DNA from: Escherichia coli
Lineage (GTDB): Bacteria > Pseudomonadota > Gammaproteobacteria > Enterobacterales > Enterobacteriaceae
Reading direction: 5' to 3' (one strand)
Assembly (NCBI RefSeq): GCF_003018255.1
Contig: NZ_CP027440.1
DNA: 64,000 bases
The position numbers and the translations under genes are program-made. A model generated the notes under the pieces. The model saw nothing but the letters and a program-made list of their open reading frames with translations. It did not search any database and was not told where the DNA came from. Below, in pieces: positions 5,217 to 41,272 of this stretch. Position 1 is the stretch's first letter. Each line of letters opens with the position of its first letter.

Positions 5217-5298
5217 GCCGGATGCGATGCTGGCGCATCTTATACGGCCTACGGTTCCTTTCCAGCCAGGTCGGATAAGGCGTTTACGCCGCATCCGG
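5217..5298. repeat. REP/BIME palindromic units (gccggatgcg...cggcctac and inverted partner)
   Basis: Characteristic REP consensus read between the convergent caiF and caiE ends. Confidence 0.7.
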
Positions 5299-9671: not shown

Positions 9672-9754
9672 TGCCGGATGCGGCGTAAACGCTTTATCCG
9701 GCCTACATTCGTGCTCCCGTAGGTCTGATAAGACGCGTCAGCGTCGCATCAGGC
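9672..9754. repeat. REP pair (BIME) in the caiB-caiA intergenic region
   Basis: tgccggatgcggcgtaaacgctttatccggcctac and taggtctgataagacgcgtcagcgtcgcatcaggc in inverted orientation. Confidence 0.75.
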
Positions 9755-20851: not shown

Positions 20852-20895
20852 TGCCGGATGCGACGCCGGTCGCGTCTTATCCGGCCTTCCTGTAT
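20852..20895. repeat. REP element between folA and apaH
   Basis: tgccggatgcgacgccggtcgcgtcttatccggcc matches REP consensus. Confidence 0.7.
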
Positions 20896-28713: not shown

Positions 28714-28802
28714 GTGTAGGCCTGATAAGACGCGGCCCGCGTCGCATCAGGCAATCGGCGCAAAATTGCCGGATGCGGCGTGAACGCCTTCTCCGGCCTA
28801 CC
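28714..28802. repeat. pair of inverted REP elements filling the djlA-rluA intergenic region
   Basis: gtgtaggcctgataagacgcggcccgcgtcgcatcaggc and tgccggatgcggcgtgaacgccttctccggcctacc. Confidence 0.75.
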
Positions 28803-32563: not shown

Positions 32564-34915
32564 TCAAAATAGCCCAAGTTGCCCGGTCATAAGTGTAGCA
32601 AAATTATCCTCAATAAAAGGGAGTATTCCCTCCGCCACGGGTTGTAGCTGGCGGGTCAGATAGTGTTCGTAATCCAGCGGTGAACGTTGGTAGTCCAGCG
32701 GCTCCGGGCCGTTGGTGGTCCATACGTACTTAATGGAGCCGCGGTTCTGATATTGCAAGGGGCGACCGCGCTTTTGGTTTTCTTCATCGGCAAGGCGAGC
32801 GGCGCGTACATGAGGCGGAACATTACGCTGATATTCGCTCAGCGGACGGCGAAGGCGTTTACGGTAAACCAGCCGCGCATCCAGTTCGCCCGCCATCAGC
32901 TTGTCGATGGTTTCGCGCACGTATTCCTGATATGGCTCGTTGCGGAAGATACGCAGGTACAGCTCCTGCTGAAACTGCTGGGCCAGCGGCGTCCAGTCGG
33001 TGCGCACGGTTTCCAGCCCTTTAAATACCATCCGCTGTTTGTCGCCCTCCTGAATCAGTCCGGCGTAGCGCTTTTTGCTGCCGGTATCGGCTCCGCGAAT
33101 GGTTGGCATCAGAAAACGGCAGAAATGGGTTTCATACTCCAGTTCCAGTGCGCTGGTTAGCCGTTGTTTTTGCAGCGTTTCTGCCCACCAGGCGTTAACG
33201 TGCTGCACCAGTGCACGACCAATTTTCGCCGCTTCTTCTTCCGAATGTGCGCCTTTCAACCAGACAAACGTTGAGTCGGTATCGCCGTAGATCACGTCGT
33301 AGCCCTGCGCTTCAATCAACGCTTTGGTTTGCCGCATGATCTGATGACCACGCATAGTGATCGACGACGCCAGGCGCGGATCGAAGAAGCGGCAGGCGGT
33401 GGTGCCAAGCACGCCATAAAAGGCATTCATAATGATCTTCAGCGCCTGCGAAAGCGGCTTATTACCCTGACGTTTGGCTTCATCGCGCCCGTGCCAGATG
33501 TTAGTCACAATCTCCGGCAGGCAATGTTTTTCTCGCGAGAACCAGGCATCGAGAAAGCCTTCGGTGCTGTGCTCTGGATCAGGCTGCGCCATGCCTTCCA
33601 CCAGCCCGACGGGATCAATCAGAAAGGTGCGGATGATCGACGGGTACAGGCTTTTGTAGTCCAGCACCAGCACCGAATCATAAAGCCCAGGTCGCGAATC
33701 CATCACGTAGCCGCCAGGGCTGGCGTGCGGCGGCACTTCGCCGAGATTAGGCGCGACATAACCAGCGCGATGCATACGGGGAAAATAGAGATGACCAAAC
33801 GCTGCCACCGAACCGCCGTGTCGATCTACCGGCAGGCCGTTCACCGTCGCCCGTTCGAGCAAAAACGGCATGATTTCAGTTTTGTGGAAGATCTGCGTCA
33901 CCAGCTCGCAATCTTTCAGGTTATAAGTTGCCAGCGCAGGCTTATCTTCGGCGAAACGGCGGTCAATTTCGTCCATTCGATCCCACGGGTTATCGATAGA
34001 TTTTCCTTCGCCTAATAACTCCTGAGCGACGGTTTCCAGCGAGAATGAAGAGAAATTCCAGAACGCGGATTTCAGTGCCTCGATACCGTCGATAATTAGC
34101 CGACCTTTAACCTGAGCAAAAAACACACCGTTTTTAAAGCCGTGCTCGCGCCACTCCAGCTCGCTGTTATCGCGCCCCAGCCGCAGCGGAATACGGTAAC
34201 GCTCGGCATGTTTTTGCAGCATTCGCAGATCGAACTGCACCACGTTCCAGCCGATGATCACATCGGGATCGTGAGTCGCAAACCAGGCGTTGAGTTTTTC
34301 CAGTAGCTGCGGGCGGCTGGCGACGTACTCCAGTTCAAAATCGAGCGCGGAGGCGTCGCCATTCTCTGGCCCCAGCATATAAACGATGCGCTGCCCGCAA
34401 CCTTCCAGGCCGATGCAGTACAGCTCACCGTGGCGGGTGGTTTCAATATCAATAGAAACCCACTTGAGCGGCGGACGGTAGTCGGGATGCGGTTTCAGAC
34501 GGGCATTAACGATAGCGCCATTGCGTATATCACCCTCGACCCATACCGGTGAGGTGATAAACCGCTCCATCAGATAGCGTTCTGGCGGGCGCACATCGGC
34601 CTCGTAGACGGTAACGCCACCTTCACGCAGGCGCTTTTCGTAATTCATCAACTGGCGATGGGCGCGACAGTAAAGGCCATACACCGGCTGGCGATGAAAA
34701 TCCTTTAACGCCAGCGGCGTCAGGCGAAAGCCTTGCTCACCCTGCAAAATATGCTGGGCGCGGGGAACCTGATCGGCGGGAATAAACGCCACGGACTCTT
34801 GCGGCGCAAGCGTAACCTGCAACGGCCCGTTGTCCGTCGCTAACCAAAAGGAAACTTCGGTTCCTTGCGGGGTATCCCGCCAGTGTCGGGTTAAGATAAA
34901 ACCTGCCTGCGCCAC
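32564..34915 (-). CDS. polB: DNA polymerase II (B-family)
   Basis: 783-aa ORF, GTG start; B-family polymerase motifs (YGDTDS). Confidence 0.96.
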
Positions 34916-34971
34916 GCTGAAAATCCAATAAAAAACCAGGCTTGATTATAGCCTGGTTTCGTTTGATTGGC

Positions 34972-34986
34972 TGTGGTTTTATACAG
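34972..34986 (-). promoter_or_regulatory. SOS (LexA) box-like palindrome upstream of polB: ctgtataaaccacag on the minus strand
   Basis: CTG...CAG palindrome about 57-72 nt upstream of the polB start; polB is a known LexA-regulated gene. As read, the spacer is 9 nt, not the canonical 10. Confidence 0.6.
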
Positions 34987-34989
34987 TCA

Positions 34990-35685
34990 TTACTGCCCGT
35001 AATATGCCTTCGCACCATGCTTACGCAGATAGTGTTTATCCAGCAGCGTTTGCTGCATATCCGGTAACTGCGGCGCTAACTGACGGCAGAATATCCCCAT
35101 ATAAGCGACCTCTTCCAGCACGATGGCGTTATGCACCGCATCTTCGGCATTTTTGCCCCATGCAAATGGGCCGTGAGAATGGACCAGGACGCCGGGCATT
35201 TGTGCTGCGTCGATTCCCTGTTTTTCGAAGGTTTCTACGATGACGTTACCGGTTTCCCACTCATATTCACCGTTGATTTCTGCGTCGGTCATTTTGCGGG
35301 TGCAGGGAATGGTGCCGTAGAAATAGTCGGCGTGGGTGGTACCGGTTGCCGGAATTGACTGGCCCGCCTGCGCCCAGATGGTGGCGTGGCGCGAGTGTGT
35401 GTGCACAATGCCGCCAATGGACGGGAATGCCTGATAGAGCAGCCGGTGAGTTGGCGTGTCGGAGGAGGGCTTTTTCGTTCCTTCAACCACTTCACCGGTT
35501 TCGATGCTGACCACGACCATATCGTCAGCGGTCATGACGTTGTAATCGACGCCGGAAGGTTTGATCACCAAGACGCCGCGCTCGCGATCAACGGCGCTGA
35601 CATTGCCCCATGTGAGCGTGATCAGGTTATGTTTTGGCAGCGCCAAATTGGCTTCTAATACCTGGCGTTTGAGATCTTCTAACAT
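34990..35685 (-). CDS. araD: L-ribulose-5-phosphate 4-epimerase
   Basis: 231-aa [37 protein letters not shown]... Confidence 0.97.
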
Positions 35686-35698
35686 GTTGACTCCTTCG

Positions 35699-35862
35699 TG
35701 CCGGATGCGCTTTGCTTATCCGGCCTACAAAATCGCAGCGTGTAGGCCTGATAAGACGCGTCAGCGTCGCATCAGGCGGTGAATGCCGGATGCGCTTTGC
35801 TTATCCGGCCTACAAAATCACAGCGTGTAGGCCTGATAAGACGCGTCAGCGTCGCATCAGGC
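35699..35862. repeat. two tandem BIME units (85-bp period), each a REP plus inverted REP
   Basis: Unit tgccggatgcgctttgcttatccggcctacaaaatc(g/a)cagcgtgtaggcctgataagacgcgtcagcgtcgcatcaggc occurs at about 35699 and 35784. Confidence 0.85.
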
Positions 35863-35884
35863 GTTACACACCTGATGCGGCTAC

Positions 35885-37387
35885 TTAGCGACGAAACCCG
35901 TAATACACTTCGTTCCAGCGCAGCGCGTCTTTAAACGCTGGCAGGCGGGTATCGTTATCAATCACCGTGATTTCAATGTCGTGCATCTCGGCGAACTGGC
36001 GCATATCGTTGAGGTTCAGCGCATGGCTGAAAACGGTATGGTGCGCGCCACCAGCAAGGATCCACGCTTCGGAAGCAGTTGGCAGATCCGGTTGCGCTTT
36101 CCACAGCGCATTCGCCACCGGCAGTTTCGGCAGGGAGTGCGGTGTTTTCACCGTGTTGATGCAGTTAACCAGCAGACGGTAACGATCGCCGAGATCAATC
36201 AGGCTGGCGACAATCGCTGGACCGGTTTGGGTATTGAAGATCAGGCGGGCAGGATCGTCTTTACCGCCAATACCGAGGTGCTGAACGTCGAGGATCGGTT
36301 TCTCTTCCACAGCGATCGACGGACAGACTTCCAGCATGTGGGAGCCGAGCACCAGGTCATTGCCTTTCTCGAAGTGATAGGTGTAGTCCTCCATAAAGGA
36401 GGTGCCGCCCTGCAGACCGGTTGACATCACCTTCATGATGCGAAGCAGGGCGGCAGTTTTCCAGTCGCCTTCGCCCGCAAAGCCGTAACCCTGCTGCATC
36501 AGACGCTGTACGGCCAGACCAGGAAGCTGTTTCAGACCGTGCAAATCTTCAAAGGTGGTGGTGAACGCGTGGAAGCCACCTTGTTCCAGGAAACGCTTCA
36601 TCCCCAGCTCAATACGCGCCGCTTCCAGCACGTTCTGGCGTTTTTCGCCGTGGATTTGTGTGGCAGGCGTCATGGTGTAGCAGCTTTCGTACTCATCGAC
36701 CAGCGCGTTAACATCGCCATCGCTGATGGAGTTCACTACCTGCACCAGATCGCCAACCGCCCAGGTATTGACGGAGAAACCGAACTTGATCTGTGCGGCA
36801 ACTTTATCACCATCGGTGACCGCCACTTCACGCATGTTATCGCCAAAACGGCAGACTTTCAGATGACGGGTATCCTGTTTAGAGACCGCCTGACGCATCC
36901 AGGAGCCGATACGCTCATGGGCTTGTTTATCCTGCCAGTGACCGGTAACGACGGCATGTTGCTGACGCATACGCGCGCCAATGAAGCCGAACTCGCGACC
37001 GCCATGTGCAGTCTGGTTCAGGTTCATAAAGTCCATATCGATGCTATCCCACGGCAGCGCCGCGTTAAACTGGGTGTGGAATTGCAGCAACGGTTTGTTG
37101 AGCATAGTCAGGCCGTTGATCCACATTTTGGCCGGGGAGAAAGTGTGCAGCCACACTACCAGGCCAGCGCAACGATCGTCGTAATTCGCGTCACGGCAAA
37201 TAGCGGTGATTTCATCCGGCGTGGTGCCCAGCGGTTTCAGCACCAGTTTGCAGGGCAGTTTCGCTTCCGTATTCAGCGCATTAACGACGTGCTCGGCATG
37301 TTGGGTGACCTGACGCAGGGTTTCCGGGCCATACAGATGCTGGCTGCCAATTACAAACCACACTTCATAATTATCAAAAATCGTCAT
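35885..37387 (-). CDS. araA: L-arabinose isomerase
   Basis: 500-aa [30 protein letters not shown]... Confidence 0.97.
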
Positions 37388-37397
37388 TGTCGTGTCC

Positions 37398-39436
<2,039 letters not shown>

Positions 39437-41184: not shown

Positions 41185-41272
<88 letters not shown>

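Follow-up and report, generated by a model that had tools for sequence, protein, structure and literature searches.

A two-unit BIME-2-type REP array between araA and araD of Escherichia coli, and its copy-number alleles

Intercistronic REPs, such as those of malE-malF and hisJ-hisQ, are said in the work of Higgins, Newbury and Stern to stabilise the mRNA that lies upstream of them. REPs also occur in composite elements. According to the accounts of Gilson (1991) and Bachellier (1994) as relayed in PMC3333891, BIME-2 elements consist of z2 and y REPs with a short S linker and stand in multiple tandem copies, the number of which varies among strains. Six tandem Y+Z2 units make up the REP325 BIME-2 array at the yjdM-yjdN locus, and one Y+Z2 unit of that array is represented by the naRNA4 model (Qian et al., 2015; PMC4550694). 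Paired inverted REPs are also found in the REPIN/RAYT system of Pseudomonas, where their mobility is attributed to a domesticated Y1 (HUH) transposase (PMC3116915; PMC2817692). The Pseudomonas REPINs, however, belong to another REP sequence family and usually occur as scattered doublets instead of tandem arrays tied to one locus (Bertels and Rainey, 2011; Nunvar, 2010). The ara locus itself has been used in such work: partial BIMEs from araD-A of E. coli MG1655 (oligos B315/B316) were substrates of the REP-associated transposase TnpA_REP in vitro, being cut at an iREP-II site, which lies within CTAC, and at a site in the linker, with formation of strand-transfer products (Ton-Hoang et al., 2012; PMC3333891). 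These substrates were single-stranded, and the authors describe the mechanism and its frequency in vivo as unknown (PMC3333891). Both the unit-wise copy-number polymorphism of BIMEs in general and the behaviour of the K-12 araD-araA BIME as a TnpA_REP substrate are known already, and the array described here is of a familiar type, at a locus that has been studied before.

The stretch of E. coli DNA analysed here, referred to as the window, is 64,000 nucleotides long. In it, a spacer of 199 bp (35686-35884) separates araD from araA, both of which were identified by NCBIfam profiles (Table 1). The araBAD genes form a single operon transcribed from P_BAD. A preliminary description had placed in this spacer two near-identical 85-bp units with a single g/a difference, each made up of a REP and an inverted REP, and had proposed a dot-plot-type check for the 85-bp periodicity; location, composition and periodicity were all confirmed. 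Tandem Repeats Finder returned a single tandem array within 35000-36500, at 35699-35863, with a period of 85, 1.9 copies, 98% match, no indels and a score of 323. A separate repeat search gave two copies of 85 nt each, at 35699-35783 and 35784-35868. In the 79-nt core a single position distinguishes the two copies (35735 G, 35820 A), and three further mismatches (35779, 35781 and 35782 against 35864, 35866 and 35867) fall among the final seven positions, at which copy 2 diverges from the repeat. Two 85-nt copies with a single core mismatch cannot have arisen by chance. The extent first given for the array, 35699-35862, holds for the two units and omits a degenerate half-REP beside araA.

Read on the plus strand, each unit is composed of a Y REP (29 nt), a 13-nt linker, an inverted Z2 REP (36 nt) and a 7-nt linker, which together make 85 nt. 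Y and Z2 REPs face in alternating directions, with their GTAG/CTAC tails intact. The CTAC of the half-REP remnant directly adjoins the araA stop codon, and the remnant was present in every E. coli allele examined. At the opposite end of the array, only 3 nt separate the first Y stem from the Shine-Dalgarno sequence of araD, so that the spacer consists of BIME sequence except for some 13 nt of ribosome-binding site.

Table 1. Features of the araD-araA spacer and the flanking genes in the window
Feature	Position	Strand	Evidence or remark
araD, L-ribulose-5-phosphate 4-epimerase, downstream cistron	34990-35685	-	231-aa ORF; NCBIfam TIGR00760, 447.5 bits vs cut-off 389.1
araD Shine-Dalgarno, AGGAG on the transcript	35691-35695	-	read from sequence; putative RBS
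Y-type REP, unit 1, short-loop variant, 29 nt (GCCGGATGCGCTTTGCTTATCCGGCCTAC), ends CTAC	35700-35728	+	regex census
Tail-to-tail short linker (S-like), unit 1, AAAATCGCAGCGT, with 35735 G	35729-35741	.	13 nt
Z2-type REP, unit 1, 36 nt, consensus orientation on minus/transcript strand	35742-35777	-	regex census
Head-to-head linker between units, GGTGAAT	35778-35784	.	7 nt
Y-type REP, unit 2	35785-35813	+	regex census; naRNA4 alignment
Tail-to-tail short linker, unit 2, AAAATCACAGCGT, with 35820 A	35814-35826	.	
Z2-type REP, unit 2	35827-35862	-	first full REP on the transcript, 22 nt past araA stop
Linker GTTACAC and degenerate, internally deleted half-REP (ACCTGATGCGGCTAC, 35870-35884)	35863-35884	.	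inverted repeat; predicted MFE structure
araA, L-arabinose isomerase, upstream cistron	35885-37387	-	500-aa ORF; NCBIfam NF002795, 896.9 bits
araA stop codon	35885-35887	-	
araB	37398-39098	-	ORF

Four full matches to the REP pattern GCC[G/T]GATG...ATC[C/A]GGC with a CTAC/GTAG tail, an imperfect, GC-rich palindrome of about 30-40 nt, were found in the array. REPs are dispersed and extragenic in the window, which holds 12 of them at six intergenic sites against 0.16 expected from shuffles. When a 601-nt query containing the array was searched against 5,425 E. coli genomes, the median was 10 matching places per genome. The five other REP/BIME sites of the window (5217-5252, 9673-9754, 20853-20889, 28716-28801 and 41186-41270) are two single REPs and three Y+Z pairs, in which all Y REPs have the standard 34 nt, and tandem amplification is absent at all five.

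Assignment to BIME-2 within the REP elements follows from composition, linkers and copy number. The ara REPs are of the y and z2 types by G/C versus T/A at the diagnostic stem position, and they are joined by 13-nt tail-to-tail and 7-nt head-to-head linkers, with no long L linker. No match to the IHF consensus WATCAANNNNTTR was found in the spacer, so the array is not a BIME-1. There are two units here, three in K-12 and one to four across strains. Alternating y and z2 REPs, a short S linker, tandem arrangement, extragenic position and a strain-variable number are therefore common to the BIME-2 family and the ara array. The array differs from the family in its y REP, a 29-nt short-loop variant unlike the standard 34-nt y, and the hairpin of this variant is predicted to be weaker (-12.9 kcal/mol, compared with -19.2 kcal/mol for the standard form). 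Because of this non-canonical Y, curated lists might file the ara element as an 'atypical BIME' and not as BIME-2. Nothing contrary to the identity of the array was met. Taken as a whole, the feature is very probably a BIME-2-type Y/Z2 array whose unit number is near-neutral and changes, by gain or loss, in steps of one unit.

The short-loop Y was also considered as a private marker of the ara locus, and this was rejected. In the genome collection, a 36-nt short-loop-Y probe matched between 1 and 7 places per genome, with a median of 4. A K-12-type genome had 5 places for its 3 ara units, an O157 genome 4 for 2, and a genome with the 168-bp allele 3 for 1. The probe is not locus-specific, since about two of its matching copies lie outside the ara locus in most E. 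coli genomes.

The orthologous BIME of K-12 MG1655 shares its Y/S/Z2/linker unit, its flanks and its remnant half-REP with the array of the window. In that genome araD (65855-66550) and araA (66835-68337) are separated by 284 bp, which accommodate three units, whereas the 199 bp of the window accommodate two. The alignment of the two spacers contains a single clean gap of 85 nt, and the earlier statement that the K-12 intergenic region is longer by exactly one unit was thus correct. Otherwise the spacers differ by a few SNPs in linkers and REP loops and in the remnant, which reads CCTGATG in the window and CCGGATG in K-12 and O157 (T/G at 35873). The flanks of K-12 differ from those of the window by 4.0% (left) and 2.7% (right). 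In unit-to-unit distances, unit 3 of K-12 is nearest to unit 1 of O157; these distances show a mosaic and not a clean within-strain homogenisation.

The number of units was surveyed in 59 complete E. coli genomes with full coverage, sampled so as to be spread over the BLAST ranks. The query consisted of two 300-nt coding flanks, and the span of the match gave the spacer length. Five length classes were found, of which one example each was read, so that the content assigned to four of the five classes rests on a single sequenced example each: 114 bp, one unit (8 genomes); 168 bp, boxC and one unit (18 genomes); 199 bp, two units (11 genomes); 284 bp, three units (21 genomes); and 423 bp, boxC and four units (1 genome). 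The GTDB representative of E. coli has a spacer of 369 bp with four units. The copy-number variability that had been proposed for the array is therefore real, and amounts to one to four units among the 59 strains and the GTDB representative.

In the 168- and 423-bp classes, a 57-nt element takes the place of TCG beside the araD Shine-Dalgarno sequence (equivalent to about 35696-35698 of the window). By regular expression, this element is an exact match to the consensus of boxC/TMECO, a potential intrastrand-triplex element (PMC4666352). A boxC with these araD junctions is carried by about 29-32% of complete E. coli genomes, and boxC is itself dispersed, occurring at a median of 12 sites in each genome. 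No boxC copy was found in the 64 kb of the window.

Stability within clones was assessed in the 60 genomes whose flanks are most like those of the window, grouped by flank identity. Spacer length was uniform in each flank group, being 199 bp in 3 of 3 genomes with identical flanks and 168 bp in 41 of 41 and 16 of 16 genomes of the two groups next in identity. Similarly, all sampled O157:H7 genomes had 199 bp, and all K-12 derivatives 284 bp. This uniformity within flank groups and lineages indicates a lineage-stable polymorphism and not a hypermutable switch. Over longer distances the number does change. The one-unit allele occurs in JJ1886 and the three-unit allele in S88 and Nissle, all three being strains of phylogroup B2, and the presence of both alleles within B2 suggests recurrent events of unit gain and loss. 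A single unit and remnant identical to the araA-proximal 103 nt of the window were found in strain 2016C-3878, and a check for a recombination breakpoint within the array gave 40 and 39 differences per 1.8 kb between this strain and the window on the two sides. The lineage of the window in this region (33886-37684, polB-araD-araA-araB) is rare: its 600-nt flanks are common to 3 of 5,426 complete genomes (DETEC-S792, JNE23-011 and JNE112863), and on either side the next-best genome is about 2.2% divergent across 1.8 kb.

Orthologous spacers of other species were extracted after a DNA-pattern scan for the AraA C-terminus. Escherichia albertii has one unit (114 bp) and one cryptic-clade Escherichia three units (284 bp). 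The spacers of Salmonella and Citrobacter are about 95 bp long and hold one or two REPs, with no tandem array in either genus, and one Citrobacter spacer measures only 11 bp. In Pseudocitrobacter, Kluyvera and a Buttiauxella MAG the spacers hold boxC-like palindromes, and the exact boxC consensus is present in five spacers. The spacer of Kluyvera ascorbata combines boxC-type elements with one Y REP. In Atlantibacter and Franconibacter the spacer measures 57-60 bp; its hairpin, GGCCAGC...GCTGGCC, is unique and runs into 6-7 T, so that it resembles an intrinsic terminator just before the araD RBS. By genus, the spacer content is thus REP/BIME in Escherichia, Salmonella and Citrobacter, boxC in Kluyvera, Pseudocitrobacter and part of E. 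coli, and a hairpin with a T-run in Atlantibacter and Franconibacter. As the outgroup spacers examined were without a tandem array, amplification of the 85-bp unit in tandem is specific to Escherichia among the genera compared.

Units would be gained and lost singly by misalignment of the 85-bp direct repeats, through replication slippage or unequal recombination. TnpA_REP (RAYT), the REP-associated Y1 transposase, may provide an alternative route; evidence for its cleavage and recombination activity comes from the K-12 version of the ara locus and was obtained in vitro only. The iREP-II cleavage consensus GGCC/TACA (CC/T within GGCC/TAC[ACG], the slash marking the cleavage point) has four matches in the array of the window, two on each strand. 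On the DNA, the array may also be a candidate gyrase site by analogy: a subset of BIME-2 elements has an excess of gyrase cleavage sites, and the excess is greater for y than for z2 (PMC6379681). The main text of that study does not name the ara locus.

On the transcript strand, the spacer of the window is predicted to fold with -99.8 kcal/mol, compared with -74.3 +/- 4.5 kcal/mol in shuffles (z = -5.6). Each REP in the araBAD mRNA would fold as a stable hairpin, the predicted energy of the Z2 hairpin being -21.4 kcal/mol. A further hairpin of 12 bp, starting 5 nt past the UAA of araA, is predicted to form between the remnant half-REP and the 5' arm of the unit-2 Z2 REP (-20.6 kcal/mol); this hairpin and the canonical unit-2 Z2 hairpin are mutually exclusive in the predictions. 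The G form at 35873, as found in K-12 and O157, weakens the predicted remnant hairpin. When six natural alleles were folded, each unit added about 42-51 kcal/mol of predicted structure. In all six, the araD Shine-Dalgarno sequence had a predicted probability of being unpaired of 0.40-0.47, and the AUG was equally accessible. The araD SD/AUG context is also identical across all non-boxC alleles. Given this equal accessibility of SD and AUG in the folded alleles, the number of units is most likely near-neutral, the context of the araD RBS and its predicted accessibility being unaltered.

No promoter-like site was found in the spacer, and no terminator-like site (GC hairpin with T-run) in 35400-36200, so that the array would be read through as part of the araBAD mRNA; readings of the element as a terminator or an internal promoter were rejected on the same grounds. 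The ara REPs resemble those of malE-malF and hisJ-hisQ, which likewise lie as hairpins between the genes of a single operon and have no terminator T-run. By analogy with these, the REP hairpins may slow the 3'-to-5' decay of the upstream araB-araA message relative to araD. An effect on translation is described by the rule of Liang, Rudd and Deutscher, as given in PMC12306157, by which a REP hairpin located no more than 15 nt past the upstream stop codon leads to translational down-regulation. The first canonical REP of the ara array lies outside this distance, at 22 nt past the araA UAA. The predicted remnant hairpin, at 5 nt past the stop, falls inside it and may have a similar translational effect.

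Against the reading of the locus as a near-neutral BIME-2 array, three other explanations were weighed. One of these treats each unit as an independent small-RNA gene like naRNA4, whose product would be an HU-binding nucleoid-associated RNA released by processing of the operon transcript. Qian et al. report transcription of about 80% of REPs and find that HU-mediated condensation depends on the hairpin structure and not on the sequence (PMC4550694), and the Rfam model naRNA4 (RF02564) aligns to 35745-35810 on the minus strand, covering both hairpins, with 59.6 bits, just at the gathering score of 59.5. However, a model that represents a single Y+Z2 BIME-2 unit will give a score to every pair of this kind. 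The second copy reaches 35-37 bits, far under the threshold, and the opposite strand 42.4 bits. In the alignment the ara Z2 is nearly perfect, whereas the apex of the ara Y is 5 nt and the inter-unit linker 6 nt shorter than in naRNA4. The same longer Y apex and linker distinguish REP325 from the ara array, and a nucleoid/HU function has been shown for REP325 only. The missing promoter-like site also speaks against separate genes. Transcription of araBAD, moreover, requires induction by arabinose. The match is a sign of common BIME-2 ancestry and not of a demonstrated sRNA; with the Rfam hit so explained, the small-RNA-gene reading is highly improbable and was rejected. The probability is negligible that the difference from K-12 is an assembly artefact, in which an array of three units was collapsed to two. 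Tandem repeats can indeed collapse in short-read assemblies, but this array is less than 300 bp in total, the identical 199-bp allele is present in three independent complete genomes, two-unit alleles with other internal SNPs occur in O157:H7 and other strains, and the length classes are consistent within clones. It is the independent genomes with the identical allele, together with the O157:H7 two-unit allele of different sequence, that make a collapse unlikely.

The remaining explanation is that copy number is an adaptive tuning knob for the araBA:araD expression ratio, with lineage-specific set-points under selection, acting through a stronger barrier to 3' exonucleases, more spacing, or slower or uncoupled translation. 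An imbalance between the two enzymes encoded on either side of the array does cause harm, araD mutants being arabinose-sensitive through accumulation of L-ribulose-5-phosphate, and the amount of predicted RNA structure added by each unit is large. The spacers of other genera also mostly hold a strong hairpin of an unrelated family, 9 of 12 outgroup spacers folding better than shuffles (z -2.5 to -7.5). Yet palindromic repeats are structured by nature, so that structured outgroup spacers are not independent evidence of selection; 3 of the 12 are no more structured than shuffles, and in one Citrobacter the spacer is only the 11 bp noted above. The araD SD/AUG context and its predicted accessibility, as described, do not depend on copy number, and a length that is fixed within clones and varies between them is what would be expected of a slowly drifting neutral marker. 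Tuning by copy number is accordingly considered improbable. A broader version holds that the araA-araD junction is under selection for some strongly structured element of any family. If this were true, the AraBA:AraD ratio, or else the degree to which supercoiling is relieved locally in induced transcription, would be determined by how many 85-bp units are present, but little probability is attached to it.

For the near-neutral BIME-2 array favoured here, the additions to existing knowledge are descriptive, and their significance goes little beyond bookkeeping. They comprise the allele spectrum (one to four units, with or without boxC), the stability within clones, the remnant half-REP beside the araA stop codon and the cross-genus turnover of structured repeats in the spacer. 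In the engineering or PCR-typing of araBAD, spacers of 114-423 bp are to be expected. With its several alleles and its stability within clones, the spacer makes a convenient marker, and its alleles form a natural series for testing the number of REP hairpins against relative cistron expression within an operon.
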